The notes under the pieces are model-generated. The model was not told where the DNA came from. It did no database searches and was given only the letters and a program-made list of their open reading frames with translations. Positions 4,996 to 64,000 of a stretch of 64,000 nucleotides of DNA are shown here, piece by piece. This DNA is from Hydrolagus colliei (lineage: Eukaryota), in assembly GCA_035084275.1 (NCBI GenBank), contig CM068757.1, positions 2,232,001 to 2,296,000 of the forward strand, given 5' to 3'. How positions within the stretch are numbered: the first letter of the stretch is position 1; each line of letters starts with the position of its first letter. The translations under genes were made by a program, and so were the position numbers.

Positions 4996-5132
4996 CTGCC
5001 GCATTTTGCCCTCAAATATACAGTCAATTGACTTTACAGTATATTCTGTGAAGCGCTTTGAGACGTCTAGAAGACATGTAAAGCAATATATCAAATGCAA
5101 GGATTATTATTACTGTTATTATTATTATTATT
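4996..5132 (+). mobile_element. Deu-SINE 3' half with (ATT)n tail
   Basis: CTGCCGCATTTTGCCC..AAATATACAGTCAATT..GAAGCGCTTTGAGACGTCTAGAAGAC..TCAAATGCAAGGATTATT. Confidence 0.9.
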
Positions 5133-5602: not shown

Positions 5603-5650
5603 TGAATTTCAGCCAATAGTTTTTGTCTGAATTTCAGCCAATAGTTTTTT
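5603..5650. repeat. Short tandem duplication
   Basis: TGAATTTCAGCCAATAGTTTTT occurs twice with a 25-bp period. Confidence 0.85.
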
Positions 5651-5898
5651 TTTGAATACAGACATACTTACATACATATAATATACGCACAAGCACAATG
5701 AAAGCTCTAATTTTCTGGTTTTGTGGCAGTTAGTATAACAATTTTCCGATTTTTAAAAAACAAAACAACCTCACCATGGTCACAATGTTCAGCACATGCG
5801 CTGCTTACAGTCGGACATACTTTTATGCTCTTTTGATAGAATTTGGTATTGAATATGCCAAATATGCAGTATAACATGTATGTATAATATTATAAGAA

Positions 5899-5985
5899 AT
5901 AATAATCCTTGCATTTTCTACAGAGACTTACCACGTCTTTGAGACGTCTCGAAGTGCTTCACAGGATTTACTGTCAAGTGAGTTC
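5899..5985 (-). mobile_element. Deu-SINE 3' tail fragment
   Basis: ATAATAATCCTTGCATTT..CACGTCTTTGAGACGTCTCGAAGTGCTTCACAG. Confidence 0.8.
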
Positions 5986-6702
5986 AGTAATATACCTCAG
6001 TGCTTGATTGGGAAATAACCAAGTCTTTTATGGGGGTGAACAGTATTTGATTCTTATTTAGGCTTGAATGCACGCCTCTTACAGTTCTCTCAAATTGAAC
6101 TGTCGGCTTTGTCGGGCTATTTTCACTGGGTTTTCACTTGTCCTTCTGAAGCGATATTTTTAAGTTCTGGACCTCCATTGTGTTTTGACCTGCTCTGAAC
6201 TCAACCTCACTCCAGCTGCGATCTCTCTTTCCTCTGGCACACACACTTTAAATGGAGATTTGCTAGTTCACGCCAGCTAGTTAAAATATCCTTCATCAGA
6301 GATACCGGCTACGTTTAACACTTTGAATTCAGGATGATCATGACATGTGTCACGTGTGGCTGGCTGGGTACCATTGTTAGTTCATGATTCTGCAGGCTGA
6401 ATGAAGGCTTGAGTTTTGTGTTGAATTTTATTTTGCGATTCACGCTCCCACCTTTTATCTTGGTGTGGACAGACTCTCTACAGTGCCGGGGCCTCGCCGA
6501 AAGTGGAAGTATTTATAAATGAGTTGTCGCTGCATATGGTGGTAATGTTTTGCATATTTTCATTAAACCCAATCCCCAAAGGATGTCTGTCCGTGTGTTA
6601 ATTGCTGTGTAATGCAGCTGCAGCTCTGACAGATACAAGCAGAATGCCCGTGGACTGATTTTGCAGCACTGTGACGTGCGGAGTCAAAACACAATGAATA
6701 AA

Positions 6703-6724
6703 AGAGAGAGAGAGAGAGAGAGAG
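6703..6724. repeat. (GA)n microsatellite
   Basis: Perfect AG dinucleotide run. Confidence 0.9.
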
Positions 6725-8086
6725 TTGCTCCAATTGCGTGGATCTGCTCATTCACTTGTCTCTCTTGCAGACAATAATAATTCAGGCTTTTTCCAGCTAG
6801 ACATATGCCTCCCATCCATTGGTGGTGTTTGGTTTTGCCGCTAGTTGTGAACAATTACAGTGCGCATGATTATTTTGAAGAATTTAAGAACCTGGCATTA
6901 CATTTGCTGTATTGGGTACTGAGGCTTTGCTGTCAATAACATACGGTTATTAATGCCCTCCCATCCTTTTTCTACATTATGATGACAGCTGCTCTTGTTA
7001 TTGTGAGACACAGCAGGTCATGAGAAGTGATTGCAACAGTAGGAGGAACGAACAGCAAAATCATTCGGGAAACACTTAAGACAATGGTCTAAGTACTGTT
7101 GGCTGTGACATTTACAGTACAAATAAACTTATGCAATAGTTCTTTCTGACCGCTCATATAACTGAACAAAAATTAGAACTACTTTGTAGCTCTGTTCCAA
7201 ATAATAATATGATAATATTAAGAATATTAATGACGATAATATTATTACAAATTGTTATAATATTGCATTTGATCACAGAAAACCGTAACCTCACATTAGC
7301 CTGACCCTAAAATGGACTTCACAACCACCCATTCCTAATGTACTGAGATAAATCTTGAGATGTTGACTGCTCAGCAGCCTGGCGGAAAGAAAAATAAATG
7401 GTTGTTTGCAAACCGTACACGGTGTGATCACTTAGAGTTTGCCATAACTGGTACCGCTAACCAAAGTGATAAAACGCACATGGCCTGCTTCGCTCCCACA
7501 GGGCTGTTAAGCATGAAATTATAGTAGTTTAATTTCCAAAGATTGCACTTGTCTAATGATTCATGTTGACTGTTTAAGTGTTCATTAAAAAGAAAGTAAT
7601 TGAGCTAAGAAGGCTGTGTGTTTTGTTTTTTAAAAAAGCCTTGCATAACTATTTTATTGAATCCTACTGTAACTTCACAGTCCGCAAATGAGACTGCAAC
7701 CTCATTAAATAGAGCAACGTTGTCGAGTAAACGAAAACTAGTAAAAATTGGTGACTGATTTAAAGTGGAACAGTGTGGTAAATAGCTGGTATCAGTTACG
7801 TTCCATGATAGTTTAGCAAATCATTTGCTTAAGCAGCCCCTATAAAGTTTGTTAATGTTCTGTTGCTCAATTTCATAAATGATCAGGCACAGTGGCATTT
7901 TCTTAACATCTTAGTATGCTCTTTTGAAGTTCCGCAGCTGCTCAAATCGTGCCCGTAAATCAGACTTGCCCCGAGTTTTAAGAGAATTACTCTTTTAGTC
8001 AATCATGAGATTCAGAGCATTGTGTTTACTGGGTTAGCTAAATTCCAGTGCCAAATGGGTGACCACTTTACAAGTATTAACAACTT

Positions 8087-8165
8087 ACAAATGACAAGCG
8101 TCTGCTACTGCTCTTTGCAAATTATTACAATTGAGACGGTGCAGTAGCAGAAGCTTGTCATTTGT
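8087..8165. repeat. Inverted repeat / hairpin (25-bp arms, 29-nt spacer)
   Basis: ACAAATGACAAGCGTCTGCTACTGC (8087-8111) versus GCAGTAGCAGAAGCTTGTCATTTGT (8141-8165): 24 of 25 positions complementary. Confidence 0.9.
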
Positions 8166-10656
8166 TGTGGTTTTCATGCTGTTTGACATTAATTGGCAAT
8201 ACAGACATAGTATTGGGGGGGAATTATTTTGATCAATGTTACCTGCTTTCCTTCAAACTGGTACAGCATGAGTTGACAGTGACAGCTGAAGTGAATCAGC
8301 AAGAGAAGCTAATTCTTTAACTAAAGCTAATTATTTCTCCAAGGACATATCCCATGGCATTGTGTGAGTGTGAAAGAGAGAACTTTACCTGGGAGGGCCT
8401 AATGCGAAGATTAGACATAAACAAATTTCATCTTTTAATCTCATCAATATTCCCCCTGAAAATGCAAGCTAACATTCAAATTCCCCAATTCTGTTTATAA
8501 AGTGACAAAAAAAAACCTCACATTAGCAGCTAACCTTCGCAATAGCTGAAATATATACAAGTCTCGACGTGACACTGTCAAGTCTTCAGTATTTTAATAA
8601 GGTGCACATTTTATTCAAAAATGGCTTAAATTCCATATGATGAATGGACTAAAATTCTGCTTTAATTAAATGATCCCAAGCGTTCAGCTGAAATTAAATA
8701 TGGAAAATGTGATCTTGAATACAAAAAGGAGCAATTTGCATTGACTGCTCTGTGGGGATCACTGCATCCTGCAATAATTACGTCACTATTTTCATAACCT
8801 GTGTTTGTATGAAACTGAATTGGAAAAAAATCCATCTCTGTTTGGAGCTGGTGGAATTTGGAGCTGGTGAAAATTCACTCATGATATTCTGTTTATGCTG
8901 AAGTACTCAATGTTTTAAAGTATTTTGTAGGTTAAAGGAATTTTTGCTATTTATACTGGAAAATGCTGAAGCTGCCTCTTTGTGACGTTTCTGTTCCATT
9001 CACCCACCAAGATCCCAGCTACAAACCCTGGCAACGTTGATAGCAGTGTGTTAGCCTCAGTGTGCCCCTAACAAGCGATTGGGTGGGGGTTGGGAAGGAA
9101 GGGTTCTTACTATACCGAAAGCAATGATTATTTATAATAAATCTTATTGATTCAAAATGTGTTTACTTTCGAATAAAAGTCCTATCCTGTGTGGACTCTC
9201 ATTGGTTTGGGGGTGAAATTAGTTCCATTGAAAATAGAATTCCAAAAAGATATCACCCACCCCTAAAACTTGCCTGTGAGTTTCTCTACCATTGTGAATG
9301 GGCTGGAGTGGGGGGTGGAGTGTGGGGGAGACAGGATTATTTTGAATAGAAAATCAATTGTTTTTCATCCCCTCAAGCAATCCTCTGTACCATGCTGAAA
9401 GAAACCATCCTGCGAATAATTAGCATGCAATATCATTGACGATTTCACAGTCCCAGATGAGAGAGAAGTCTCCCTTTCTCTCTTTTCCCCGACACACACA
9501 ATGCTGTTTCACAAGGCCATTCATGTCCCCTGTGTCTCTTTCTGTTTTGTTCTTGCTCTCCGTGCATGCATTTCACAGGCTTTCAAATGGAAGATTTTAT
9601 TTGGAAAGGAGGAGGAATTTTGTCTGCTTGACCCTAGCCTTGGATGTGATGGACAGACGTCAGTGAAAAATGTATGGCTGCTTTGTATAAAATAAAGATG
9701 TAGATAAGTAAATGTGCATAAAATGAAAGGGTTCCATAGGCAGAGGTGGCAAAGGAAATGGAATTGGGGATAATTATTAATTGTTCAGTGATGGCCTTCA
9801 GATGATAAGAAGCTGCTGTGACCAAAATACAGTACAAACACGACTTTGCATCTTCAGACATTTGATCATAAGATCATAAGTTATATGACTTACTGATGTG
9901 GCCACCTTTGAAATACACTTTCAGTGCAGTTCGGGGCATGCTAGCCTCATATATGCACACTAATTAAAGTTCTTAAAGTGTTTACTTTTTTGTTACTTCT
10001 ATTGAACTGCAGATAAGTGAGATAGATATTGATCAATGTTGAATAAAATGCATTGAAAATATATATTTATGAAATGCATTTTGGATGCTGTATTTGTGCA
10101 CGAGCTAGAGATGTTTCATCAGAATCATAGATTACTATTGTCACAGGAGTGCGTATAGTTAACAGTGGTATTGCCATAGAAACCGATCATGACAGCTGTT
10201 ATTACTTGCTCCCTGGAGTTGTGGTATATGATAATGGTGGTCAAAGGGGGACTAGAGATGGGGGGATGGGTAAGCAATAAAGAATTGATAGCATATCAGC
10301 AGCTAAACCATGACAATCTTTGTGTTGAAATTAATTACAATAGCATATTTCCTTGTGTATGAGGGAAAAATTTTATTACTCAACGTAAGGATGATAATTT
10401 TTTGTGTCACGCCGTTGGTTTTATTTCTCTCAAAGCAAGCAGTGTCGTTTATAGATTTCATGATTAATTTAATCAAATTTAAAATTGGAATTTCATGGGA
10501 GTAGAAATGAATATTTTAACCTTACCTGCCCTTATAAATCACATCTTAATTAAAGCATGTGAATTCTAGACCTAATCCTTTGTTTCTCTGGGGTTTGAAC
10601 ATGTTCTCTGTCCATTCTCATCTATAAAGCAGCATTTGTCAATTTTGTTCTTTATT

Positions 10657-12479: not shown

Positions 12480-12757
12480 GAATATACAGTCAATTCTCTT
12501 CACAGTATATTCTGTGAAGTGCTTTGAGATATGTCAACGGTGTGATAAGTTGCTGTATAATAATAATAATCCTTGCATTTGATATAGTGCTTTTCACATC
12601 TTATCAACGTCTCAAAGCGCTTCACAGAATATACTGTAAAGTGAATATTTGTGGGCGAAACGTGGCAGCCAATTGCACACAAACAGTCCAACAAACAGTC
12701 GTGGATTGAAATGACCAATTTTTATTATTGCGGTTTATATCAAATGCAAGAATTATT
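12480..12757. mobile_element. + strand Deu-SINE tail (12480-12557, 12736-12757) interrupted by a - strand Deu-SINE 3' half (~12558-12728)
   Basis: The + tail stops at ..GCTGTATA and resumes as TATATCAAATGCAAGAATTATT after an antisense copy containing GCAGCCAATTGCACAC. Confidence 0.85.
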
Positions 12758-13696: not shown

Positions 13697-14437
13697 TGTC
13701 AAGATTAGCTCAGTTGGTCATTCCATCACCTTTGAGTTAGAAAGCTGTCTGCCTCAAGCTCCACGTCAGGACTTGGCATGTCTTGCTTGACACTTCAGTG
13801 CATCGCTGGTGGCACCCTGCATTGTAAGATAAAATTTCAAACTAAATTGCCGTCTGCCTGGTCAGGTGGACGTTAAATATCCCACCGTCGGGACGGTGCT
13901 ATTGTGGAGCTCCTATGGCTCAGTGGTTAGGCTGGGGAGACCTGTGTTCGAATCCAGGCAGGTCAGGGCGAAACCTGAAACCTTGGGCAGGTTTCCTTAC
14001 TCCACGCGCCTAATAATAATCCGTCCAAAAAAAACCACAATAATAAAATTGGTCATTTCAATCCATGACTGTTTGTGGGGGACGCTGCTGTGCGCAATTG
14101 GCTGCCGCGTTTCGCCCACAAATATATACAGCCAATTCACTTCACAGTACATTCTGCGAAGCGCTTTGGGACGTCGATAAGATGTGAAAAGCGCTATATC
14201 AAATGCAAGAATTATTATTATTATTATTATTCCATGGGAGTTTCTCTAGATGTCCTGACGAACAATCCCCTCAATAAAATTGGCAACCACTTGCGGGACA
14301 TCGCTGTGTACAAATTGACTGCCGCGTCCGCCTACAAAATAAATATACAGTTGCGGCACTTTAACAGTACTGTATATCCGTTGAAGTGCTTTGAGACATT
14401 GTCTTGACAGTGAAAGGCGCAATGTCAAAAGCAAGGA
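13697..14437 (+). mobile_element. Older SacSINE1/AmnSINE-like Deu-SINE interrupted by a young SINE
   Basis: tRNA-like head TAGCTCAGTTGG and body GTCTGCC..CAGGTGGACGTTAAATATCCCA. After the insert come GGGAGTTTCTC..TGTCCTG, the Deu core GCTGTGTACAAATTGACTGCCGCGT and an L2-like tail. Family name assigned from recalled consensus. Confidence 0.75.
13904..14230 (+). mobile_element. Young tRNA-derived Deu-SINE (SINE2-1_CM-like), near full length
   Basis: A box TGGCTCAGTGG, B box GTTCGAATCC, Deu core GCTGTGCGCAATTGGCTGCCGCGTTTC, L2-like 3' stem-loop and (ATT)n tail. Confidence 0.93.
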
Positions 14438-18089: not shown

Positions 18090-18410
18090 GTGGAGTCCTG
18101 TACCTCAGTGGTTGGAGCACTTGCCTTACACGCGTGAGACCTGTGTTCGAATCCAGGCAGGTCAGGGCGAAACCATGGGCAAATTTCCTTACTCCACACG
18201 CATAATAATAATCCCTCAAAAAAAAAACACAATAATAAAATCGATAATTTCATTCCACGACTGTTTGTGGGATACCGCTGTGCGCAATTGGCTGCCGCAT
18301 TTCGCCCACAAATATGCAGTCAATTCACTTTACGATATATTCTGTGAAGCGCTTTGAGACACCTAGAAGACGTGAAAAGCCGCTATATCAAATGCAAGGA
18401 TTATTATATT
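18090..18410 (+). mobile_element. Young tRNA-derived Deu-SINE, full length
   Basis: GTGGAGTCCTGTACCTCAGTGGTTGGAGCACTTGCCTTACACGCG head, B box GTTCGAATCC, A-run, Deu core and tail. Confidence 0.95.
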
Positions 18411-21400
18411 ACTTATATTATAATCTATTACTGGGATGATGTGTTCATTGGCAATGGGCTGGAGATGGAATTGCTGGGTCTGTCATTGCAGCAGGACCCA
18501 AGAGATTCAGGATGACAAAGTTTCCAGTCTTACCGACAGAAGGAAGCCTCTCTATGAGCAGGCTTTCTAAAAAAAAAATTCCATCCATCTTCCAAAACAT
18601 CTTTGCCTTCCGCTAAATATTATTCTTTCTCAGATTGTTTTTTTTTCCTTGAAAATAATTGGACATTTCATCCTCATGGCGGTGGTGTGATTGGGTTACA
18701 TTTTTCTTGCAAGGATAATGCCTTAATACAGCATTGTGTTTGCTTAAGTGAGACACACACAGGGGCAGTTTCTAAGAGATTGTACACATCTTATTTTTCC
18801 TACCGTACCCTTACCTGTAACAGCGCAGTTGTGTGTCAGGAACGGTGATCGATAGATTTGTGGTACTGTCGTCTTATTTTTGCTGCTGAAATATGAGAAC
18901 GTAGAAGATGGAAGGAGTAAAGGGCCACTCATTATTCCTGCTCCATTTGCAGGCCCTACAAAACCTATCTGATCGTAGAAAATGACAAAAAGAATGTTTC
19001 ATGCAACTACAACTGCACATGTTTGAATATTTCTGAACACACTGGGCAGCTGTACACTTTTGTGCATCTTTGGGAATGGAAAATAATTAAATTGGAGTCA
19101 TAGTTATAATACATTGACATGAAATTGCCTTTCTAATGCGAGACACAAATGCAAGACTTATCCTCCAGTGGTGTGAACTTCGACTCATTTCTATGTTTGT
19201 GCTGCAAAGGTAATTTCAGCAATTTCATGCATTGCAATGTGAGCTGTGTCTTCAAATATCATGAATGCAACATGTTGAGCAGTGTATTTGTTAGTACAGG
19301 ATCCAGTTTATTCTTGTATCTGGCTGTACTTGTAACTTCTAAGGGACTGGGTGTTTTGGGAAAGTAAGTTGTGGTGATCTGGTTATTTTTCCAGCAGTGA
19401 AGGATCATCTAGTCAACGCAAAGCCACTGGCATCAATGCAAAACGTCTCTCTGACTGAATGAAGAAAAGATGGACCGACAGCATCGAAAGAATGAGAATT
19501 TCAGTTGTCATGGGAATTGATAAGGGTGTCAAGCATGATGAAGGCAGGCACGTTCTCTGACAAAGCTTCATGGCAAGTACAGGGAAATACTGAACTGCGT
19601 GCTCTGGGGCTATCTGGTGCTTTACAAATGGATCTCACGTGAAAGCAGATAGAGGCTGCAATTACTGCATTGATTTGAAGTCTTTGGTCATTCACTATTT
19701 ATAGCAGGAAATTCATGCTCAGCTTGAGGGTAAAATGCATTTTGATTGAATTGTTTGGAGCTTTGCGTTTTACTAGCTGCAGTTCGAGCTATCCATTTAT
19801 TATTATTCCACATTTGCTTTCTGAAAATGATAATATGTATCTATCGTACAAAACTGCATTTCAGGTTAAAGGCCCACGATAGCTGTTACCCATTTAGACC
19901 TAATAGCAAAGTTTAATGCCTCACAGTTTTCTCTTACCAAAACCATCAGCGGTACAGTGGACAGCAATGTTTGAATGATCTATGCACATGGTACTTGCAG
20001 TCAGTGCCAATGCTCAAGTAGTTTCATCATCGTGGCAGATTTCTTTCAGACTACTGTTGTTTCATGCCTTGAGTCCAGCCTTGAATCCAGCTCGAAGTAT
20101 AGGACATCCATTAATTTGCCTCAACACTGTGAATATAAGGCAGAAACACCAGAATACATTTGAGTTGTCCCCAGGTTTACTTCTGTTTCTGTGAACAAAG
20201 GGGTAGAGGACACAGGATGAGTTGAAAAGAGTAAGTTTAGCACAGGCACTTGAAAGTATTTCTTTACATAGAAGGTGATCAACAGCTAGAACTTGCTGTG
20301 GGAAGCATGGCCGAGGGCAGGATGTTGGACTTGTGTGCAAGAAACGTCTTGATGCTCCAATGAGGATAGGGCAGGAATGTTATTTTGGAAGGTTAGCATC
20401 AAAAGGATGGAAGGGGCTTCTTCATTTGAACCTCTCTTGTGATCTAGTGATACAAGGTCTGACTTGCTGCGCCAGCATTGTTGAATTCTACTGTACGCTT
20501 CCTCATTCTGCCTTCCAGCACCTATTCCCAATCCATGCGCAGTGAATGCCAATTTAATCAAATAATAGTAACTGTAGCTCGATTCTTTCAATTGCTAATT
20601 TGTTTGACCTTTCAACAATATTTGAATAGCTTTTTCAAATTTATTATACATCGTTTCTGTGCAAATTCAAACTCCATTCACTATTTCAGGTGTTCAGTTA
20701 CAAGACCTTTAGGTATCTGCCCACCCCAAGTTGCAGCTGTTTCTCTAGCCGCAGACAGCCAGAGTAAATCAAAATGCTGAAACGGTGCCAAACGACATAT
20801 GCAGTGCAAATGTACACCCTAATGTCGCCTTGGTCATTTTGCTATTATTTACTCAGTTATCAAAACAGAACCATACTGTGTTTGTTGCACAAGGGTTTCA
20901 ATAAATCCTACTGTTTTGGGTGGCTTTTTCTTCAAAGCAAATAGAACATATAAAGTAGGAAGGACCGCCACTGATCCTTTACAATGTTTATATACGGTTC
21001 ACAAATTCAAGTGCCGTAATCACCAGAAATATTGTGAGTCTGTGTTTATGAAACTTCCTCTGTAGTCCACACACTGGAAAATGACATGCGTGAGTCTCGT
21101 TCCAGGTCACTGCTGAGCTGTAGTCAGTAGAATTGGCAGTAGAACTGCACAACCACGTTACAGGCATTTCATGACTGTATTTTTGTGATTGTACGCTTTG
21201 GAGGCCTGCAGTGAGTGATATGGAGTGTGTGACTAATGCATAATCAGAGGTGAGGATGTAATGGATGCTAAGGAGGGAGTTTACAAGCATGTAATTCGAT
21301 AGCTGGATTTAGGAGACATTGGAAAACTCTACTGGTTTGTGCAATCCGAGCATCCTCCCCAGCACCGATATTTCTCTCTCATTGTTGTGAGGGATGCACT

Positions 21401-28393: not shown

Positions 28394-28719
28394 GCCCGCT
28401 CCCCTCCGCCCAGCAGGCTCCGGTCTACTCTATGTCCCCTGACTCACCCGCCCTACCATTGGCGGGCGAGCCTTCAGCCACTCTGCTCCCAACCTCTGGA
28501 ACGCCATCCCACATTCGCTCCACCTCCCCCACCCCTCCCTGGCCTCCTTTAAGTCCCACCTCAAGATCCTCCTCTTCGACAATCCCATCGGTCACCCCAA
28601 ATCCCCCTCCCCTTCCCTCCCCTCCCTGTTCCCAGCTCGGGTCTTAAACAGTGACTGTCCAGCGCCATGGGACGTCCTCCTGATGTGAAAGGCGCTGTAC
28701 AAGTGTCATTTTGTTGTTG
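28394..28719 (+). mobile_element. L2 3' region with tail
   Basis: GGCGGGCGAGCCTTCAGCCACTCTGCTCCCAACCTCTGGAAC (GGRAFSHSAPNLWN), C-rich UTR, 3' stem-loop and TTGTTGTTG. Confidence 0.9.
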
Positions 28720-29569
28720 GGTTCAACTGCTGTGCCAGACCTTGTCAATGGCATTTCTTTTTGAGCAAGTGATATAGTAAATGCTACACTGTACAGATCT
28801 GCTGCTTGATCATTAGCTGCAATGTACTGACCCCTGCAGGCACTCCTTTCTCATTGCACCTCCATAAAGCTTGCCTTTGACATTGATAGTCTCAAATGAG
28901 GCAATATTCCAGTTAAAGAGCTAATTTTCAGCTTGATTGTACAAACAGCGGTAACACTGCCAATACGATAAGTAATCCGCTGGTAGTCTGCAAAGTGGCA
29001 AAAGGCCCATTTTTGCCCTGAGTTGATGCTTCCAACATTGAAAAATAACACAAAAAATTGGAAGGAAATGAACGGCTTGGATTAGAAAATTTGTAGACAG
29101 GAGGAATCAATCTTGGCTTTTTTTTTTGTCAGTGTTTTCACAAGAGCTGATGTGGTGATAAATGCGACTTTGGTTTGGGGGCATTGGTGGATTTTTATCG
29201 ACCTTGGCCCATGCGAGGGACACTGGGTTTGGGACTCGTTTGTGAAACAGTGTGTGGCTTGTCACCTCTGAGCCCCCAAGATTGCTTCCTGGAGATAGAG
29301 AAATTCAAGAGCAAAGCTTTCTGTTTGGCTCCATCCGTTGGCACAAACGCAGTGTGCTGGCAGAAGAAGTAGCATTGACTCTACAGTCTGAGCATTCATT
29401 CCACTGTGACGAGAGGAAACTCAAAATCAATAATATCATGCAGATTTTGCAGTTCATCTCTGTGTTCAGTTCTAAGGCATTTCTCATGGGCTGAACTTCA
29501 AGCAATACAATTTACTATTATGCGTAATTTGAGAAAATTCTTCTATTTAGTGTGGAAAACCATTAAGGC

Positions 29570-32219: not shown

Positions 32220-33540
32220 AACTTCCAGAATGTCAGAAAAATATCAAGGCATTTGTACTCAAACTGAATGAAATAGTACGATTCCCTATATGTACATTGC
32301 TGCAGCAAAAAAATATTCAAAGAAAACATTCAGTATGACTTTTTTGTTAGATATCTCCAAAAGTAATATTATTAAATAGAATCCTGTTTTTTTCCAACTG
32401 TTTCCAGCACTGTAGAAAATTAAGATTTTCAAAAAAGACTATTATCCAACTATAATAAGCGTTTGTCTCCAACAAACTCTAAATGCTTTTACTAAAATTG
32501 AAACCCAAACAGTAGCTGAGTTCAAAAGGTGACTGCTCGGAATCCGTTAGACCGCAAAATGTTTATTTTGTCACAAAATAAAAACGTTAGGCCAGCGATG
32601 TAAGCAAAAGGATTGCACAGTTTGAATTCGGAGATTACTTGGCACTCTCTGAAATGTCTCTTACTGTATTTGCCAACTCCTGCTGCTCACCAGTACTGGA
32701 AGTTTTGGACACAGTTTATTTTTCTTTCCATGTACTGCTGGCGTTTGAACAACATCAAGGTGACCGAAACCCCCCCGAATTTAAATGGTACACCATATGC
32801 TTACACTGTAACAGACACAGTGTGTTCTAAGCTTACATCCAAATTCGGAACAATTGGTACGGTTTTGGTATGTATTTTTTGATTAAAAAATCCAATGGGA
32901 ATGCTATCATTAAAATTATTTAATTTACATCAATTTTAATGAGTATTTTAAAATTGCGTGCCCATTCACGACTCGGGAGTTAACGTTTTACTCACCTATG
33001 GTATTGTGAGTGTTCTGAGATGCTATTTTTATTGATGCAGATATACATCCATGTCAATATTTTTTTAAATTACAATTGAATTGAAACCAATTTTATCATA
33101 GAATCAATTGTGCCACTGTGGTATGTCCTGTAAGAAATCCGCTTAAACCTGAGCCAAATGTTTTGAATGATGCCACGTTTGGATGTCTTGTGGTGAAAAT
33201 GACTAATTGTTTTTTTGCACAGAGAAGTTAACTCACACGGACTGACTTGTACCGTGCTTTCCGTTGAGGTTGTTGAAAATGAAAGGAATTGTAATCGTAA
33301 CAGTTCCGTTTGATTGATTGCTTCAGTTAGAATCTCAACCAGGTTCAACCCCAGATTCAAGGTTCAACTTTCATTCTAATGCGTTGTGTTAACAATGGCC
33401 CTCGATGGTGAGCATTTGTACTTGTATTGACTCCCAATGAATGTCAGAAAACATTACATTCACTCACCTGGAGCCAGAATCTTGTTCTGAGAACAGAATA
33501 CAGGGCTGAGTATTGATTGCGCAGGGTAGTGTATATACCT

Positions 33541-33743
33541 AAAACAACAACAGAAATCCTTGGGAACACTCAGCAGGTCAGGCAGCATCTATGGAGAAAG
33601 GAAAGTGAGTCCGTGAAGTGTTCACAGGAGTGTTCTGAAGTAGGGTCGTGGACCCAAAACGTTGACGCACTTTCCTTTTCCCAGCAAAAGCGATCTGTTT
33701 TTGTTTCAGACTTCCAGCATCCCCAGCACAGTATTTTATGTTC
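33541..33743. mobile_element. Decayed palindromic Penelope-related element with a mutated hammerhead motif
   Basis: Shares CTCAGCAGGTCAGGCAGCATC.ATGGAGAAAGGAAA and CTGTTTTTGTTTCAGA.TTCCAGCATC with the 59884-60123 element. Confidence 0.8.
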
Positions 33744-35807
33744 GGTATATACACCTATTTAGCCCTTTGGGAGAAATGATTGTGAGTCTTCAGTACATAA
33801 AAGTACAAATCACTGCTGTTTCTACGAGGAATTGATTCACCTTTTCTAATGAATACTTCATTGCAGTATTCGTAATTCTCTCTCAGTTTTTTTTTAATGC
33901 AATTCTCTTTACAAACAGCAGAAGGAGCCAGAATAACATTCCGTGCTGCATTAAGGCACTTTATGAAGGGAAACAGTTCATCCAACCAAACAGAATTGTT
34001 TCTTACACGTAGCAGTAAACTGTGCATTAAAAATTCAACACATCTTTCAATACCTTTAAAATGCAGAACAGGATCACCAGAGACGTCTCGATGAAGCAGG
34101 CACTGGGGCCCATTCGATCTCACCTTTCTGGAATACCTGACAGGATATCCATGCAGCTCACATGCTCAATTAACACATAAAATGTAACCATAAAATGTAA
34201 CCTTAATTGAGCATTTGAGCTGCATGAAAAACCGTGAGTTTTTTCCTTGGGGGAGGAGAGTTGAAAAAAATGAAAACTGAAATATTATTTTTACCTCTTG
34301 TAAAATTAAGCATTCAGAGCGTTTTCTCAGAAAACCTACAGACCTACAGATAAAGAATTGCATTGCCCAGAAAAGTGTTCAATCTCTTCCCTAGTTTGGG
34401 CAGCAAATAATTATTGCAGATAAGCGGCCTTGGAGTATTGAGAGAGAAGGTAGTGTTGAATTTGCGCTCACTTGTCCTGTGTGTCTGTCTGTGTGTGTGT
34501 GGGAGAGCAGATGACGCTGCAGTATATGGTTATTGCTAACCTTGCTGACAGGCTGAGATTGATATTGGCAGGCGTTGGGGACAGGCTGGAACTGCTTGAT
34601 AAGGCAGGAAGTGAACCCAATGTCAAATTAATCCCATCTCAAGTGGAGGAATGTGACTTATGCCAGAAATTAGCTTGGCAACGCTCAACTGAAGCCAAGA
34701 GAGGGGGGAAAAAAAAGTATATCCTTTGTCATGTTCAATTAAACAAATAAACTTGTACTGCATTAGCCTTCTAAGAGCCATAGCATCACATTTTTCCAGT
34801 AAATTTTTCCCGAACCCAATTGCCTTTCGCCCCCACCCCCCTAAATGTCTGCCAAATGGTTACTAAATGTTACGACCGTGCCATCAAAATAATGCAATTC
34901 AGTGAATTAGTTTACTGTTTAGCAACACTGTCATGCTCCTGACTCCATATTAAGGAGCATCTGAGATAGATTCCGTTCCTTGAACATCCAAGAATAGTTT
35001 GCTTCAAAGTTTCACCTCGAGTCGTTTTCCCCTCATTTTGTGCGAGTGAAACCACACATACATATATTTAATGGGAGGAGTGGGGATTCTTGATACTAAA
35101 AGCAGCTGGTCAACAAGGAGTACAGACATCTAATGGATTTCAAACTGATTCTCAAGGTTATAGAGTCTGCATTTTTGCCAGAAATGTTGCTTCAAAATTC
35201 ACTGTGGTTAATTTCTTTTGAAAGAAGAAATGATACAAAGTCAAAATGTTGCTGGATGTATTTTATAGGGTTATTCACTTGTGAAATGCAACAATCATTG
35301 CAAACCCCAGATACACAGATCAAATAAATCATCTACTATAGAACCACACACATTAAATAGATAAAATAAGCTTTTTATTTGTTAAATATTTGTGAAGCTA
35401 TGACACAGGGAGAAGGAATTGGAATATAAACGTAAACATAGTTTGATTTTTATTGATAAGCTTTTATCAACAAGCTATTGTTGAGTTTTTCCTTGGATTA
35501 CCTCTAGGATTCAGAGAGAAGTTGTACGATGCTTTTCATCAGAGGATGAAGTTTGGATTGAAGCATCGGACTGAATAGGTTTTCTGTGTCGCAGAGGGAA
35601 TGGACTTGTTGGGGTTGTATCAGTTATTCCATATGTTATGTTCTGAAGTTGCTTGTGGTTGACTAAGTATTGTTACGTTATGATCTGTGTGGAACATAGT
35701 TTCCCATAATCCCGTCCGGCTAGTTTCTCTGGCAAAACTATGTGAGTGAGACCAGATTGAGTGAACATGGGACTCCAGATTCAGACCGGGTGCCACACAA
35801 TCTTCTT

Positions 35808-36121
35808 GTCCTGCAGCTGAGTGGTTAGAGCCCTCGCCTTACAAGCATGAGACCTGTGTTCGAATCCAGGCAGATCAGGGCGAAACCTTGGGCAAGTTTC
35901 CTCACTCCACATGCCTAATATAATCCCTCTGAAAAAAAAACCACAATAATAAAATTGGTAATTTCAATCCTCGACTGTTTGTGGGACTCTGCTATGCGCA
36001 CTTGGCTGCCGCGTTTCGCCCACAAATATACAGTCAATTCACTTACAGTATATTCTGCGAAGCGCTTTGAGGCGTCTCAAAGACATCATAAGGCTGTATA
36101 TCCAATGCAATGATTATTATT
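35808..36121 (+). mobile_element. Young tRNA-derived Deu-SINE, full length
   Basis: GTCCTGCAGCTGAGTGGTTAGAGCCCTCGCCTTACAAGC head, B box, Deu core and tail. Confidence 0.95.
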
Positions 36122-37494
36122 AAGCGTGCAACGCTGAACGAAGAGAGGTACTGTTGACTGCTTCTGTTGAGATGAGTGTTGGTTCAAATAATATATTTTT
36201 TAAAATGACAAATCTTTTACCCATCGTGAGAAAAAAAGTTTACCACCTCCATCTTCAGTTTCCATGGTCTTGAGCTGTTCCATTTTGCTTTCTTTTGCTC
36301 CATGTAGTCAGGGACCTGATTTGCTTGCCTTTCCTGTTGGGATCCACAGGTAGTGTTTTATGTGGCGTTTACGGTTACACATTCTGGAACTCTGACCAAA
36401 CCCAAACATATTTTGCTTAACAATGCTTGACGGTAGTGGTTGGTATCTCCTTTCCCCTCATCGCCTCATTCCTGCGGCCAGCACGGAGTCTTGTTGGAGT
36501 CACTTTCCACATCTGTGTTGCTAGCAGCTTCGTGGTGAGAGTCATTGTCTTGTGGTTCTTGAAACCCGTCAAGCACAAGTGATTATTTTTTCTGCAGTTT
36601 TACAAAAACTATTGATTTTAATTTGACATATAGCGTTCGATCGCTTGAATCTCTCAGGCTCTATGTTCTACTCATACTGTATTAGTGCAGAATAGTCACG
36701 AGTCAATAGTCTTACTATTCATTGCAGCAAAAGTTTGATGTTGTCAGATATTGCCTACATTACAATTTATTTTATTAAAACACCTTTCATGTTGGGAGGA
36801 CTTCTGAAAGCATTTCGAACAGATTCTTTTATTTGTGGAAAAAAGTGGCAAATGTTATCACAAAGCCTGTTCATAATAATCCTGTGTACTGATGTCCTTC
36901 ACTTCACTGTAAAGAACAATGAATAGATGCATGTACACAAGTGTCTTCAAACACTGTGTTGGAATTCTTTTCGTGTATTTTTTCTGATTCCAAATCACAA
37001 TGGAGTGCCAAAAATACATCAGTCAGTTAAACACATTAGTTTCTTCAATTCCAATAAGTGTGTTTTACTGGTATGTTTTTATGTGTTGCATAGTTTGATT
37101 TTTAAAGGAAAGTTCATACTCAAAGAATAACGGGACCACAGTGTTTAAACGCTTATTATAAATATTGTATCTTCAATTCTGTCGTTGCCAGTGGGATGGT
37201 GAACTATTTTCCAAGGAAAAGAGATGTAAATCTGCCCAACCGCTGGGTTAACAATTCTCCTAGAGATGACAGCCTTTGGTATATAAATGGTAAAACTGTG
37301 TATGCTTATAAAAAGCACTGAAGCATATTTTATAACTGGCATAAATTGGAATGCTTGCGAAATTATTCGTCAGACGCACTCAAAAATATTCTTGTGTCGT
37401 AGTGTGGACTGAAATAACTCTTTCTGCAGCGATAATTGCCGGATCTGTTGAGGAACAATTCATTTCAATGAACCACCCTTTATAATTACAGCAT

Positions 37495-38814: not shown

Positions 38815-39200
38815 GGAAGGGGGAAAAAATCAGCTAAGATTCCCTCTCGTGATCTCTGTTCCGTGATTCTCACTAGAAAGTATTTGTGCGTGGATAACAA
38901 CAACAATAACAAGCAGGCCGGACCCTGCTGAGTGGAGGGGGCGGGCAGGTTGGTAAAGGGTTAGGAGGTCATGAATGTAGGGTAGGGTGAGAACATGGAA
39001 GGCTTTGAATGTGAGGACCAGGATCTGGATCCTGGATCCTCTGGATGATGCAGGGTAAAAGCTTTCAACAGCTTTTACCCTGCATCCTCTGGATGATGGG
39101 GAGCCAATGGAGTTGGGCGAGGGTGGGAGAGACGGACTCATGAAGCTTGGAGTGGTGGATAATGGATGAGAACAGAATCCCTGTTTGGGGCGAGGTTGAA
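38815..39200 (+). mobile_element. Ancient unnamed tRNA-SINE body interrupted by an L2 fragment
   Basis: GGGGAAAAAATCAGCTAAGATTCC..GAAAGTATTTGTGCGTGGAT resembles the minus-strand relic at 50440-50670. It resumes GATGAGAACAGAATC after the insert. Confidence 0.5.
38898..39154 (-). mobile_element. Internally deleted L2 fragment with (GTT)n tail and 8-bp TSD
   Basis: Minus frames read SPTLAQLHWLPIIQR and ILVLTFKAFH. GTGGATAA occurs at 38890-38897 and 39155-39162. Confidence 0.85.
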
Positions 39201-44738: not shown

Positions 44739-46630
44739 CAAGGATTTACTAAGTCCATTTTGTCACATCAAAATATATTTGTTCTGCTCTGTTGGGTTAC
44801 AAATGTGTCAACATTATCGTAGTTTCCTAGTTTCTAATCCTTTATCAAAAGTATCCTCTCTCACTTCATCACCAATAGACTTTAGTGTGTTAAACTGTTC
44901 CTGTTTTGTGAAGTAAATCAAGTGTTAAACTCTCAGCTGGGAAACGCAAATTGGAATATGAATTGATAATCTCAATTAGGTTTCCAACCTCTTTTTAAAG
45001 TTTTAAAAAATCTCTAGTATGTCTTATCACGGTCAATTTCCTGGCACTTGTTTTAATCTAAGTGCCTTCTAAACATTTATAGACAATCTATTTATAGACA
45101 AACTGCAGCAGATGAATGCAAATTGTTTTCGGTGTTGCTGCCGTTTTCTTTCCTTTAATCCTAACAGTATCAAGTATTTTAAAACCTTCTTATATTTATA
45201 ATAAGCAGATCACGAAATCTCAAACCTAAGGCTGCTTATTTTTTTAGGATAACGAGTAGATCCTTTCATTGAAATCCAATGTTTGGATGTTCACTCGCTT
45301 AAATTATGCCCCCGGTTTCCTGACTTCACATGCGCTGTTGCTCGAGCTGATAACATGAGCCGAATAGATAATGTGCGGGAACATGGTTGACATATCACTC
45401 CACCATCCCTTTAAGAACACATTTGGAGACATTCATGCAGGATTATCAAATCCATTTGAACATTTTGGTTTAATAAAACAAATCCATTACTTGTCAGAAT
45501 ATGAGAAGTTGAGGATTTGCTTCATGATGTGCTGCTCTGACGACTGCAGCCACCAGGATTATAAAGATTATGTTAGAATAAGTAGTCAGAGATTAAAGTG
45601 TGAACTTGATTTAAACATAGAAACTCAGAGATGGAACCTGGGTGCTCTCGTGCAGCTCTTCGATATGGTCGTGTTGTTTGGTTTCCTCATTTCTTAATGT
45701 TTCTCCATCTTTACCGTGTCTCCTGATGCCATTCTCTCCAGCTTGTATATTTTTAATAATGAAAATTGTTTTGGGTTGCTTAAAAATATTAATAATATTA
45801 ATTCATAAGTTTATTTTGCTCCTTCTACCCCACCTCCTCCCACACTCCACCCCACCCCAAAAAAGCTACTTTTTACAGAATATTTTGTGATGGGACTAGA
45901 GAGTTTTGATGGATGACTGTTCACATTTAAATAAGCTCAAATAAACCATTTTATTTTTGATCTCTTCATAAATATTTTATTGGCTTTTGAGATTCAGATA
46001 TAAGAAGAATTTCATAGGGGCCCCCTTAATATACTGTATCTTGAATTGATGAAGTGCTTCTTGCTCAGAAGTCTCCCTATCTATATGCCACGGAGCTGTT
46101 ATGTGAGATAGATGATGCTGCACCGATGAGAGTGTTGTGTAAGGGAAATTTTAGGCATTGATTTCTGCCATTTGTCTTGATCGTTGAGTTATCTGAGGTC
46201 TGAAAGTATTATTTATTGTGAAGGCCTGATGCTACAAAGGCAGTTACTGGAATAGCTTATCGTGTTCCCTTCTTGTATGTTTGCTTCTCTTGGTCTGTTT
46301 CGAACAGTTTTCATACTCCCCTGACTGCACAGTTCAACCGATCAATTTCACACATCATCTTTCCTTTGACTCCCACCCACATGTCTTTTGTGCAGTCATG
46401 GGGGGAATAAAGTGGCTCCTTTCTTCTTGACGAGCAACTGTGCATATCCAGAAATTAACATTTATAATTCTGAAATGTTGACACCTTGCAGAGATGCACG
46501 GTGGTTAGACTTTGATGTTCATCGTATAATTTGCTCAACCTGCTCATATTTAATTTCTTCTTTCTGTGTACAATGCGGATAATGTTTTTTTTAAAGTTGC
46601 ATTGAATCACTGGAAACGTTCATCTTTTAG

Positions 46631-46927
46631 TAATAATAATCCTTGCATTTGATATAGAGGTTTCACGTCTTCCAGACGTCTGAAAGCGCTTCACAGAATA
46701 TACTGTAAAGTGAATTGACTGTATATTTGTGGCCGATTGCACACAGCTGTGTGACACAGACAGTCTTGGATTGAAATGACCAATTCATTATTGGGGTTTT
46801 TGCTTGAGGGATTATTACCAAGCCTGTGGAGTAAGGAAACTCGCCCAAGGTTTCTCCCTGCCTGGAGTCAAACCCAGGCCTCTCTCCTGCAGGCAAGTGC
46901 TCTAACCACTGAGCCACAGGACACCAC
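46631..46927 (-). mobile_element. Young tRNA-derived Deu-SINE, full length
   Basis: The minus strand reads GTGGTGTCCTGTGGCTCAGTGGTTAGAGCACTTGCC..; body and (ATT)n tail follow. Confidence 0.92.
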
Positions 46928-47060
46928 ACAGGACTCTTATCACATTCTGAAGTTTATTTTTCTTCTTCTGCTTTGAAACCACAAATCCTCCGAACAGAGA
47001 AAACACCCGCTGTCTTCCTGTTGCTCCCAGCCAACATTATTACCCTTATGTTTGATCAGG

Positions 47061-57308: not shown

Positions 57309-57637
57309 GTGGAGTTCAGTGGTCAGAGCACTTGCCTTACAAGCGTGAGACCTGTGTTCGAATCCAGGCAGGTCAAGGCGAAAGCTTGGGCAAGTTTCCT
57401 TACTCCACATGCCTAATAATAATCCCTCCAAAAACGAAACAGTAATAAAATTGGTCATTTCAATCCACGACTGTTTTGTGGGACACTGCTGTGCACAATT
57501 AGCTGCCGTGTTTCGCCCACAAAATATACAGTCAATTCACTTTACAGTTCATTCTGTGAAGTGCTTTGAGACGTCTAGAGGACGTGAAAAGCACTATATC
57601 AAATGCAAGGAATATTATCATTATTATTATTATTATA
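57309..57637 (+). mobile_element. Young tRNA-derived Deu-SINE, full length
   Basis: TCAGTGGTCAGAGCACTTGCCTTACAAGCG, GTTCGAATCC, Deu core and (ATT)n tail. Confidence 0.95.
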
Positions 57638-58344: not shown

Positions 58345-58875
58345 TTTGGAGTTTATAATGGGTGAAATGTTAATCAGAGATTCCCCTGTGGAGGTGGATG
58401 TTCAACATCTATCCTCATGACGCTATTTGAGAAGAGAAGGAAGTTTCTCCAGTGTCCTGAGATTGGACGGCGCAAATTGGCTGCTGAGTTTACCGACACA
58501 TAATAATAATAATAAAAATAATAATCCTTGCATTTGAGATAGTGCTTTTCACGTCTTCTAGACGTCTCAAAGCACTTCACAGAATACACTGTAAAGTGAA
58601 TTGACTGTATATTTGTGGGCAAAATGCGGCAGCCAATTGCGTACAGCAGTGTGCCATAAACAATCATGGATTGAAATGGACCAATTTTATTCTTTTTTTG
58701 AGGGATTGTTATTAGGCGTGTGGAGTAAGGAAACTTGCTCAAGGTTTCACCCTGACCTGCCTGGATTTGAACACGGGTCTCACATTTGTATGGCGAGTGC
58801 TCTAACCACTGAGCTATAGGACTTGACAGCAGTTACCTGTGAAGCACATTGAGATGGTTCAATGTGATATATATA
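58345..58875 (+). mobile_element. Old Deu-SINE relic split by an antisense young SINE
   Basis: GGTGGATGTT..CATGACGCTATTTGAGAAGAG..TCTCCAGTGTCCTG..GCGCAAATTGGCTGCTG, resuming CTGTGAAGCACATTGAGATG after 58830. Confidence 0.7.
58501..58827 (-). mobile_element. Young tRNA-derived Deu-SINE, full length
   Basis: The minus strand reads GTCCTATAGCTCAGTGGTTAGAGCACTCGCC..GTTCAAATCC..Deu core..(ATT)n. Confidence 0.95.
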
Positions 58876-59883
58876 TTTTTTAAAAAGTCATTTATTTCTG
58901 ATATTTTGTAACATTTTACATTGCACGCCTTAGTAATCCCCAATTAATTCGTGCTTATTTTCTGGCACAAAATTGCATTAAAAGATTTCTACATTCCCTA
59001 TCGGAAAACTGGGTAAAAATACAACAGGAATCTGTCAACAGTAGTATTTTGAACAGAACAAGAAGGTGCTCGTGTTTCTGAACGTGCTGAATGAGTACTG
59101 CTGAGGAGGATTTAGTGTTTTTTATAAGTACGTGGTGTGACTTTCAATGATCCATAATCAAAGACCTCCGAATACCCAGAGAGCTGTGGCAAGAGACGGC
59201 ACGAGTAAAAACTGCCTCCTCCTGAATGTATGTAAGCTTCAAGAGCTTCATTACTTTAATGCATTTGCCCTGCTAGAGATGATGTATTCGTCAGAAATGA
59301 AGGGCTATGTAATGAAGGGTTTTTCTTCATACAGCGAATACCTCACTGATTGTGACTCAGCTGGCACAGTTCTGACTGGGTTGATGTTGAATCGAATCAT
59401 CGAATATGTCACTCTGCTGCAGAATAACGCCAATTTCTTTGTCTCTTAAGATCAAATGTAGCAGATGACTATTCAGGTGTATTTTTTGTGTGTAAAGGTA
59501 AATGGAACGTTGATGTGTGCGTGTGCATGTGTATGTGTGTGGGTTAACAAGATTATCCAGATGAATAATCTGGATACCATTCATCCTTTTGCCTCATATA
59601 GGTGTGTGTATCTGTTTGTCAGGGTTTTTTTTTCCCTTGCTGGTCCTCAAAGAAAAAGTTGAGAAAATAAAGCAGGCCCCACATACGTTTTTCTCGTCCC
59701 AACTGCAAACGTTTGCACGAATGTCTCCTTAATATTTTTGCCGGCAGGAGATGAATACAGAAGCTTGAGGTTTGGCTCAATGACTAAATCTCCAGAGTCA
59801 TGTTCATTGCAGATGTTTGCTGGTTTGGCCACTGCAGTATTGCAATGTGGGTGACTTAAAACAAGCGCAATTCTCCTTTGCAA

Positions 59884-60123
59884 ACAACAAACAACAGAAC
59901 GCAAAATACTACAGATGCTGGGAATCTGAAACAAAAACAGAAGTTGCTGGGGAAACTCAGCAGGTCAGGCAGCATCCATGGAGAAAGGAAAAGGAGTCAA
60001 CGTTTTGGGTCTACCATCCTTCAGTTCTGACGAAGGGTTGTAGACCCGAAACGTTGACTCCTTTTCCTTTCTCCATGGATGCTGCCTGACCTGCTGAGTT
60101 TCCCCAGTAACTTCTGGTTTTGT
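59884..60123. mobile_element. Palindromic non-autonomous element (Penelope-like inverted-repeat derivative) with a 13-bp TSD
   Basis: Arms ~59928-60022 and ~60032-60126 are near-perfect reverse complements. TTCTCCTTTGCAA occurs at 59871-59883 and 60124-60136. Confidence 0.85.
60023..60059 (+). ncRNA. Minimal type-I hammerhead ribozyme motif
   Basis: Stem I AGUU/GACU, core CUGACGA(A), stem II GGGU-UGUAG-ACCC, GAAA, loopless palindromic stem III ACGU and a GUU cleavage triplet. Confidence 0.7.
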
Positions 60124-60511
60124 TTCTCCTTTGCAAGCGCTCGTTCGCTTGAGGGTTTTCAAAGCTGCAAATAATGATGTCAACTCCGCCATTTTTCCAT
60201 CTGCAAGAAACTGCAAAAGACGTGTCCATCTGGTGCTACCAACCAATTCTGTTTAGCGATGTTGGAAGGTACTGAAATAAATGGACCCAGTGTCAATAAA
60301 CCCTTTGCAGGTTTTACTTGATTATTCCTTCAATATACAGTAATCTGTAACGTCACTCTGGCTTAACTTGTCACCACCACGTAAGTCATTGTGCTGCTAA
60401 TTTCCCTTCTGCAATTATTTATGTATTCATAATATGTGTCGAAACCGACTGTTTTTCACTTCCACACGGTTGGATACGGTAATATTACTGATTCCGTTTT
60501 ACAATGGATGT

Positions 60512-61214: not shown

Positions 61215-61524
61215 GGGATGAGGCGGGGTTGACAGGTGGGATGGTGGCTGAATGCATGGTTGAAGAGGAGGATCTTGAGATTGGTCTTGAAGGAGGCAAG
61301 GGAGGGAGCAAGGCAAAGGGGTTGCGTGATGGAGTTCCAAAGCGTAGGGGCAGACAGATTGAATGCCCTGGCCACCAATAGTAAGGCGGGTTTGGCGGGA
61401 GATATGGAGCGGGCTGGATCCTGCTGAACGGAAGAAGCGGACAGGTTGATAGGGTGTCAGCAGGTCAGAGAGGTAGGAGGGGCAAGGCCTTGGAGGGCCT
61501 TGAAAGTGAGGAGGATATTGAATT
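61215..61524 (-). mobile_element. L2 ORF2 C-terminal fragment
   Basis: Minus frames read FEFNILLTFKALQGLAPP and ARAFNLSAPTLWNSITQPLCLAPSLASFKTNLKILLF. Confidence 0.9.
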
Positions 61525-62397
61525 CAAATAAATAGTGATATGATTGCCTGTAGGTGGGAATCTGTTTTTGATGTTTGTTTATCATCTGAATTTCATGCCA
61601 TTCAGTAAATGTATTAAAATTCCCAGACATTGACTCGAAACTTCTGATTTGTTGAAATTGTTTTGACACAGATAGATGACAGTTTTTAATTCCATTGTCT
61701 ATTTTATCTGTTTTCATCAGTGCTGCCTTTTGACAACCTGGTAGATTCTTATTTTTGGCCCTTATCTTATTGTCAATATATTGAGCTCTGTCTGTGCGAT
61801 TTTTCTCTTTATCTGATGAGTACCGGTAGCTAATTCTAGTCTGGCAAGTGTGCATGTTCCAATTTAATCTCTGCAAAGGAGGAAAGACAGTCTGTTGCAA
61901 GTGCAGATCCTTGTTAAATAATAGTAAAATAAAGGACAATTGTCCAAATTGTATTGTGAATCCAAATTAAATAACTTGCTTTCACCCTACATTGAGCATC
62001 AACATTTTCAAGAAGCGCTCGAGTAATATTGGTCGAAAAAGGGCTGTTTAAATTTGCAATCCTGTTCTTACGCAAGTAAATGGCATTTCAAAAAATGCTT
62101 TCAAACATTTCAAAAAAACACCAAAGTTATGCTAACCTGTTCTGCTATTCTGGAAGCATTTTTGCTTTTTTTTGAATACTGGGAGAACATTTGTAGATCT
62201 TGGCTTCTTTTCTACCATAGATTACATTCTGTTTGTTGCCCTTCTTTTCATAATTGAGCTCCAGCTCTCAAAAGCATTCTGCTCAAACATCTCAGATGTT
62301 TCTCTATTCGATATTATCCAAAATGCACTGAACATTACAATCATAGCCTCGGAAATGATCTACACCCCGACTGCCATGATCGTTCGCTGAGGGTCAC

Positions 62398-62670
62398 AAT
62401 AATAATAGTAATAGTCCTTGCATTTCATATAGCATCTTATCACGTATTGATAGACGTCTCAAGGTGCTTCACAGAATAACTAGAAAAGTGAATTGACTGT
62501 ATATTTGTGGGCGAAACGTGGCAACCAATTGCGCACAGCAGCGTCCCATGATAGTTGTGGATTGAAATGACCAATTTAATGTAGGTTTTTTGGGGGATGG
62601 ATTATTATTAGGCATGTGGAGTAAGGAAACTTGCCCAAGGTGTCATCCTGACCTGCCTGGATTTGAAACA
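62398..62670 (-). mobile_element. Young Deu-SINE, 5'-truncated
   Basis: Runs from the B box (minus strand GTTTCAAATCC) through the Deu core to the (ATT)n tail. Confidence 0.92.
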
Positions 62671-64000
62671 CGCATGACTCATCCCTGTTGTACCTTGCTT
62701 TACAGGAGATCTCAGGCCCAGTGAAAGATGGTAAGGTTTGGGACTGAGCTTTCACCTGTAATTTGTCCATTGAACTCCAGACGATACTGTAAATGTGAAC
62801 AGGTAGACACAGAATTTTCAATCAAATGGCTGAATTTTAAAAGGATCTACTCTTTTTCATGGGAGCAGAATAGCCCGGCCTACCCAAGCATTCCCTTTCC
62901 TCCTTTTGCTGAATTACAGCTTTGGCAAAATCCCACAGCTTAGCAGGCAATGAATGGAGACTGTGGAGGAGGTCCCTGGAACAGCACATCTGTCGAGAGC
63001 CACAGGTGTGGTAGACATGGATCTCAACTAATTCCTTCCCAAATTCCATACAGCAAATACTGACTGATTCCTGTGAAGTACATCACAACACTTGATGGTC
63101 TATTCAATTATAGATTCAGAATGATGGAATATTAAATGGACCACACACTTCACATGTGCTTGGCCAATAATTACACCCAATGCCTTTTCATTATGCGACT
63201 TTCCTAACGGACATATATTTCGATGTTTCTTGATCTCTGTTAACGGAGTTAACAGCTCTGCAGTCAGCAAGTTTCTCTCTGTGGCGGATTCAGCAGAAGT
63301 GAATTAAAATGAGGCAGAACAGGAATCGTTAATTGCTTTCTTTATCGTGAGATCTGTCTCATTACTTTGCAATTCCCTTTCAAACAACTCAGCCAAAACC
63401 AGTCCTAAACCATCCAGGCAGACTGCCTCTCTGAAGAATTTCGATCTTTCTATTGAATTGTTTCCGTAAAATAGTCGGGCAGATAACTAATAATATGGAT
63501 TTGAAATATTGAATTGAAATTGGGAGGTATTGTTGTAGGGTAGCCAAATGTAGTATAAAAGGGAAAGGAGAGGGGGGAAAAAAATGAATTAGTTTTTCGT
63601 CCAGAAATCTGTCCTGCTGCTATCTCCTGGTAAAAGAAAAGATAAGGCATATGGCAAATATTCTTTCAGGGCTTACAGGGAAGGGAATCTGTTAAGCACA
63701 TTCGATAAATACAGATCACATTAACCTTTCAGAAAGTGTTAAAAATAGAAAAGTCCTGCTGGTATGACACTGAGGGAATATTTTTCAATCTGAGAGAATT
63801 GTTACGCAAAAGGTTTGAATGCGATAACTCTAATGATGCTTCAAATTGTTCTTTCTTTGAAGCAGCAACTTCAAAAGAGCGTCCTTGTTTAATCTGCCCA
63901 TTTTTATTGATTTGACACAAAAATAATAGTGAATGGGCGATGGCGATACGATGCAGGTTGTCTGAGATATTTCTTCATGCTGCACAGTAAAGATTTATTC

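Follow-up and report, generated by a model that had tools for sequence, protein, structure and literature searches.

At 59871-60136, the window analysed here (the whole stretch of 64,000 nucleotides, or 64 kb) contains a fold-back element in which two 95-nt arms, 59928-60022 and 60032-60126, are 95% complementary across a spacing of 9 nt. The arms differ at five positions, three of which are G.U/T-G wobbles, and the entire interval 59871-60136 folds with a calculated energy of -187.2 kcal/mol (z -21), a stability that none of 200 shuffled sequences reached. The near-perfect hairpin with arms of about 95 bp described in the original prediction is therefore present. An exact 13-nt direct repeat on the + strand bounds the element (59871-59883 on the left, with an A>G difference at 59882 in organism B, and 60124-60136 on the right). 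When pairs of 53-nt stretches were drawn at random from the window roughly 20,000 times, an exact 13-mer was common to both in only about 0.025% of the draws, and one further copy of this 13-mer, at 39781, looks like a chance occurrence. As the right repeat begins with 2-3 nt that still belong to the right arm, the true target-site duplication would be 10-13 nt with microhomology, so that the 13-bp duplication proposed earlier holds as an exact repeat at both ends but may overstate the duplicated length.

The element is asymmetric, its left arm being 44 nt longer (59884-59927), and its earlier description as palindromic fits the 95-nt arms while overlooking a tail on one side only. This PLE (Penelope-like) ‘tail’ of about 31 nt (59898-59928, - strand) is found on a single arm, coincides with the family ends at 59898/59929 in three sets of contigs (X5, X7 and X11, see below) and aligns to the tail of the tailed arm in a second copy of the family. 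Beyond the commonest end of the tail lie 14 A/C-rich nucleotides (59884-59897, - strand), which, from their sequence and from pile-ups of loose contig ends at 59898 and 59901, we infer to be a longer tail variant or an added simple repeat. The tailed arm (59928-60022, - strand) compares as an inverted, 5'-truncated pLTR end with a hammerhead remnant that starts near G8 and carries G12>A. The ribozyme-sense arm (60022-60126, + strand) is a tail-less pLTR end by arm comparison and family ends, and its last 2-3 nt are common with the right repeat. The boundary between arm and tail (59925-59945, - strand) lies just 5' of a CAG that follows a pyrimidine-rich run and resembles a 3' splice site; introns occur in PLE pLTRs.

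The minimal type I hammerhead motif at 60023-60059 (+ strand) has its full core at 60027-60033, an extra A at 60034 and GAAA at 60048-60051. Stem I (60023-60026 with 60056-60059) contains one U.G pair, stem II (60035-60039 with 60043-60047) has 5 bp when a closing U.G is counted, and stem III is the palindromic ACGU at 60051-60054 without a loop, the cut being predicted after 60055. The 4-bp stem I with one U.G and the loopless ACGU are as originally proposed, and only stem II is longer than the 4 bp claimed. A descriptor of the minimal type I hammerhead matched once on both strands of the 64 kb, at 60027, against a mean of 0.017 matches per 64 kb in 60 Markov-2 control sequences, none of which (0/60) gave both stems with at least 4 bp. 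Of the two motif checks suggested beforehand, the descriptor-type search found the motif and the Rfam search did not: Rfam returned no hammerhead match at the gathering score or at E<=10, and only generic hairpin matches below threshold.

Minimal hammerheads of PLEs share a conserved nucleotide separating positions 9 and 10.1, a G10.1-C11.1 pair and a palindromic 15.2-16.2 stem (Cervera and de la Pena 2014, PMC4209133), and all of these are present here as A60034, the pair G60035-C60047 and a palindromic 15.2-16.2 without loop 3. The full core on the + strand, which is the sole descriptor match of the window, and the minimal dimer-type character claimed for the motif both agree with this published consensus, cleavage itself being predicted. 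The extra A after A9 and the GUU triplet had both been suspected of lowering activity. Counted by eye in Fig. S3 of PMC4209133, 54 of the 56 minimal hammerheads shown have a nucleotide at the position of the extra A, U17 occurs in 24 of the 56 and the same C-G-U-U in 15 of the 56, and both features are thus common in this class. A lone PLE minimal motif was uncleaved and dimers were cleaved weakly (PMC4209133), and in isolation the present motif would be a weak, dimer-dependent cutter. In a nearest-neighbour model the double hammerhead reaches -10.7 kcal/mol versus -25.9 kcal/mol for the best co-fold, a comparison to be read with the poor treatment of the junction by such models. The hammerhead is likely an ordinary pLTR ribozyme that was carried along with the insertion. 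In the mirror arm, a damaged copy had been noted on the basis of an apparent CUG; the G12>A change is there, but the CUG is borrowed, being the complement of the first bases of the other arm. Judged by the consensus, the left-arm hammerhead is truncated within the core near G8, carries G12>A and would be inactive.

A second fold-back copy of this family, in a more decayed state, was recognised by a BLAST match and arm comparison at 33540-33745 (+ strand). It has the tailed arm on the right and the tail-less arm on the left, and its centre differs from that of the element at 59871-60136. Its tailed arm has a 31-nt deletion as well as A9>U and G12>A, giving a dead core. Of the three arms that reach the core in the two window copies, only one retains it. 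The flanking repeat of this copy is weak and imperfect, and 1.1% of random pairs score as well. In its centre, at 33612-33624, lies a perfect 5-bp mini-hairpin, possibly a trace of folding back where the arms join. Because the second copy has a centre of its own, the hairpin looks to have been made at each insertion and not copied as a unit, a claim drawn from two fully read copies (the second of them degraded) together with loose-end rows.

The host genome is vertebrate-like, has about 39% GC and abounds in short repeats, whose likeness suggests, tentatively, a cartilaginous fish. An abundant SINE-like family of 320 nt, 75-87% alike, occurs at 13937-14231, 18095-18424, 35808-36122, 46628-46928, 57310-57636, 58500-58823 and 62398-62672 and in many 3' fragments; we take it to have a tRNA-like head and a tail common with LINE-2/CR1-like ends. 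Two inverted 3' fragments of this family form an imperfect hairpin of 154 nt at 12493-12646, and further self-complementary stretches of 62-79 nt at 8087-8165, 34150-34226 and 39036-39097 are unlike the hammerhead family. The frames at 955-1332 (- strand) presumably resemble the reverse transcriptase of a CR1/L2-type LINE at its C-terminal end, and related pieces lie near 28400-28720, 38900-39130 and 61240-61530; Pfam gave no match for 958-1332.

The family was followed in contigs of 4 of 20 runs aligned to 59500-60500, namely X5 (organism A), X7 (organism B), X11 (organism C) and X16 (organism F). The contigs aligned numbered 24,024, 23,419, 2,952 and 19,220, respectively, with nearly all depth on the element. 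In X5 and X7, the depth summed over the arm exceeds that of the flank about 100,000-fold, a ratio that is not a copy number and is read only as very abundant. The family is very abundant. Just downstream, at 60350-60420, lies a second, less abundant repeat with a summed depth about 100 times that of the flank in the same two runs.

Among the 24 rows of loose ends listed of 1,163, contigs ending at 59898 and 59929 numbered 300 and 204 in X5, 207 and 173 in X7, and 52 and 35 in X11. These ends are 31 nt apart in organisms A, B and C, and the flanks outside them are mixed and A-rich (agreement 0.38-0.45). In the distant organism F the ends fall at 59908/59914 and at 59929/59930, the latter with 515 and 337 contigs. 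Two family ends 31 nt apart are the signature of a PLE tail, and the element at this locus uses both of them, one per arm. Behind 59993, the majority sequence (agreement 0.59-0.80; X5, X7 and X11) keeps GAAA intact and forms five Watson-Crick pairs in stem II, and the changes in the copy at 59871-60136 can accordingly be read as decay. This includes its U.G in stem II versus Watson-Crick pairing in the family majority, as taken from majority loose ends only. In one loose-end row of X7 (agreement 0.52) there is a hint of A-U in place of G-C in the stem.

About 200 contigs each of X5 and X7 and 46 of X11 extend upstream of 60022 with a similar, non-mirror majority sequence (agreement about 0.5), and this non-palindromic continuation suggests that a longer parent element may exist. 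The flanks of a further 149 contigs of X7, which start at 60024, are mixed and hint at truncation at the 5' edge of the ribozyme. Neither RT nor GIY-YIG was found by Pfam among 140 of the window's 378 ORFs of at least 55 aa, the three matches obtained all being below curated cut-offs, and a protein search with a 46-aa frame across arm and tail returned no longer homolog. A 71-aa singleton from a 1.5-kb contig, which matched this frame, was considered spurious, a frame that lies over a related repeat. All six 21-mer matches in metagenomes were chance matches of 21-23 nt in GC-rich contigs, and a 17-nt match at 59287-59303 was dropped as BLAST did not extend it (E 0.07-0.16). Scans of viral contigs, prokaryote genomes and phages returned no copies of the family. 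At the level of title listings, the literature search returned no description specific to this hammerhead-bearing family, which is probably already catalogued in Repbase/Dfam.

The insertion is old. A contig of organism B (X7 record 25) runs across the left junction and 42 nt into the element, and another organism B contig reaches 25 nt into the element from the right, below the 31-nt rule for crossing. The same insertion in this related organism places it before the split of A and B. Between A and B the flanks differ at 18 of 677 nt (2.7%), versus 5 of 95 nt (5.3%) between the two arms, and the copy apparently decayed neutrally, with no sign of constraint. No empty site was found among the 15 joints listed of 253.

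The original prediction had also proposed that the antisense arm acts as a folding switch. In the fold model, a ribozyme fold with stems I and II imposed and the core left open comes at a cost of 3.3-3.7 kcal/mol when the right arm stands alone, and of 41.1 kcal/mol once the left arm is included. A + strand transcript would have its antisense arm synthesised before the ribozyme, and a - strand transcript holds only the broken motif in sense. With this energetic cost and this order of synthesis the switch finds no support. The ribozyme in any transcript spanning the locus is predicted to be locked in a 95-bp duplex, and on these models the hairpin is far more likely a permanent lock than a switch. 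No host gene was found around the element, and none of the 20 runs listed with this sequence is an RNA run, which bears on expression in neither direction.

Taken together, the locus is quite probably an old, dead-on-arrival PLE insertion in which two 5'-truncated pLTR ends stand head to head, one of them tailed, within a duplication of 10-13 nt. The Penelope-like origin inferred in the original prediction is strengthened by the inverted pair of truncated pLTRs, the one-sided tail of about 31 nt and the fit of the hammerhead to the PLE consensus, as is retrotransposition with target duplication by the exact 13-mer and its null of 0.025%. The further idea of a distinct, non-autonomous element that is transcribed and copied as a hairpin unit by PLE proteins, with its antisense arm regulating the ribozyme, would account for a short and very abundant sequence, for the clean duplication and for the fact that both window copies are fold-backs of similar size, and pLTRs suffice for mobilisation in trans (PMC3846280). 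It is nevertheless improbable: the centres of the two copies differ, the roughly 200 contigs each of X5 and X7 that run upstream of 60022 share non-mirror sequence, the ribozyme fold is disfavoured by 41 kcal/mol when both arms are present, and the core survives in one of three arms. The differing centres and the upstream continuation fit an inversion made per insertion, which is a known PLE trait (PMC8557442 Fig. 2; PMC3846280).

Less probable again is that a single PLE end inserted first and gained its mirror arm later or during repair, through a template switch or an inverted duplication, or that the hairpin was retained as a precursor of small RNAs. A single integration is indicated by the fact that the two arms end at the family's two preferred ends within one duplication; the divergence of the arms (5.3%) exceeds that of the A-B flanks (2.7%) with no sign of constraint, and every Rfam microRNA match scores far under its gathering threshold. 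In favour of this possibility, the insertion has been retained in organisms A and B, and a long near-perfect hairpin, if transcribed, could be a substrate for Dicer or ADAR. A DNA transposon, either a MITE or a fold-back element bearing long terminal inverted repeats, in which the hammerhead would be incidental, shares with the element that it is short, palindromic, very abundant and flanked by a duplication. Its termini, however, are not inverted repeats, as one arm is 44 nt longer; the ends of the family fall at two positions separated by 31 nt, the motif agrees with the PLE consensus and would seldom arise by chance, and a duplication of 10-13 nt is longer than those of Tc1/mariner, PIF and hAT elements. 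The MITE reading is largely refuted already and is very improbable.

How a PLE insertion would acquire this layout can be proposed as follows. A PLE RT/GIY-YIG protein on element RNA would make a staggered cut of 10-13 nt, and each freed 3' end of the target would prime reverse transcription, the top-strand end at the start site of the tail and the bottom-strand end at the tail-less site, aided by the 2-3 nt of microhomology. Synthesis of the two cDNAs would end after about 105-140 nt, at the hammerhead or within it, and the cDNAs would then be joined mid-element. Double priming followed by joining would explain why the tail is one-sided, why there is a single duplication and why the centre differs from copy to copy. 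With a PLE protein of anole, both strands of the target are cut and extended, and copying begins at two internal sites of the RNA that lie as far apart as the tail is long (Frangieh et al. 2024, PMC11167929); the hammerhead of this PLE cleaved only when the protein was present and is dispensable for insertion in vitro (PMC11167929). Perhaps the fold-backs record the PLE enzyme priming both target strands at once, one per internal start site, with the ribozyme as a stop to copying, marked by the accumulation of copies starting at its 5' edge, and, at the boldest, with part of the family being a self-propagating, ribozyme-bearing hairpin retroposon, although this extended proposal is tentative and we consider it rather unlikely. 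A literature search at the level of title listings found no statement of double priming for PLEs.

The element is real and PLE-derived, is ordinary in kind and has a layout that is already described for PLEs. As one old copy among many, the single locus carries little weight; the family could be useful for studies of PLE integration. Inverted PLE structures have been attributed to ‘still undefined features’ of how these elements transpose (PMC8557442). With tens of thousands of short, cleanly duplicated insertions, tail placement, cut stagger, microhomology and truncation relative to the ribozyme could be counted, and if the fold-backs are a record of double priming, both steps of PLE integration would be testable from sequence alone at this family size. 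For annotators, such hairpins mimic MITEs and microRNA precursors.

In twin-primed LINE-1 insertions both target strands prime and an inversion arises inside one duplication, as is proposed here. The two pieces of such LINE-1 copies come from different parts of one RNA, whereas both pieces of the present element represent the same 3' segment, so that two template copies or two rounds would be needed. Among PLEs, insertions with an adjacent inverted, 5'-truncated copy and a tail of 30-40 bp at one end only (Craig et al. 2021, PMC8557442 Fig. 2) and insertions with inverted pLTRs, a 31-bp tail and duplications of 8-10 bp, one of which an empty site confirms (Arkhipova et al. 2013, PMC3846280), have been described; further background is given in PMC6155905, PMC6765202, PMC8969392 and PMC4350176. 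The present element shares with canonical EN+ PLE insertions the inverted pLTR ends, the tail of about 31 nt on one arm, the duplication, the 5' truncation and the hammerhead within the repeat. It differs in being extremely short, in that both copies stop at the ribozyme and no coding sequence remains, and in a duplication of 10-13 nt compared with 8-10 bp; the comparison is with EN+ PLEs as a whole and does not extend to placement in the Poseidon, Neptune or Nematis clades.

With the metazoan PLE minimal type I hammerheads the motif shares the CUGANGAH core with an extra nucleotide, the G10.1-C11.1 pair, a short stem I, the lack of loop 3 and C-G-U-U (PMC4209133). The 56 examples listed there, which have no row for a cartilaginous fish, do not include this family, which appears to be far larger than the 4,000-9,000 motifs that the same source reports for coelacanth and Xenopus. 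Dual minimal hammerheads on opposite strands, 100-700 bp apart, were considered ‘probably related to truncated PLEs’ (PMC4209133); in contrast to those pairs, the two motifs here abut and pair with each other. Retrozymes, finally, consist of units repeated in tandem head to tail, each with its own ribozyme (PMC7229834; bioRxiv 10.64898/2026.07.22.740005). Like animal non-LTR retrozymes, the present element is non-coding, carries a type I hammerhead and is related to PLEs. An identity as a retrozyme was rejected, as tandem head-to-tail units with intact hammerheads are lacking at this locus; the units instead form a head-to-head pair with one intact minimal motif, an arrangement in which release of a monomer by double cleavage would be impossible.
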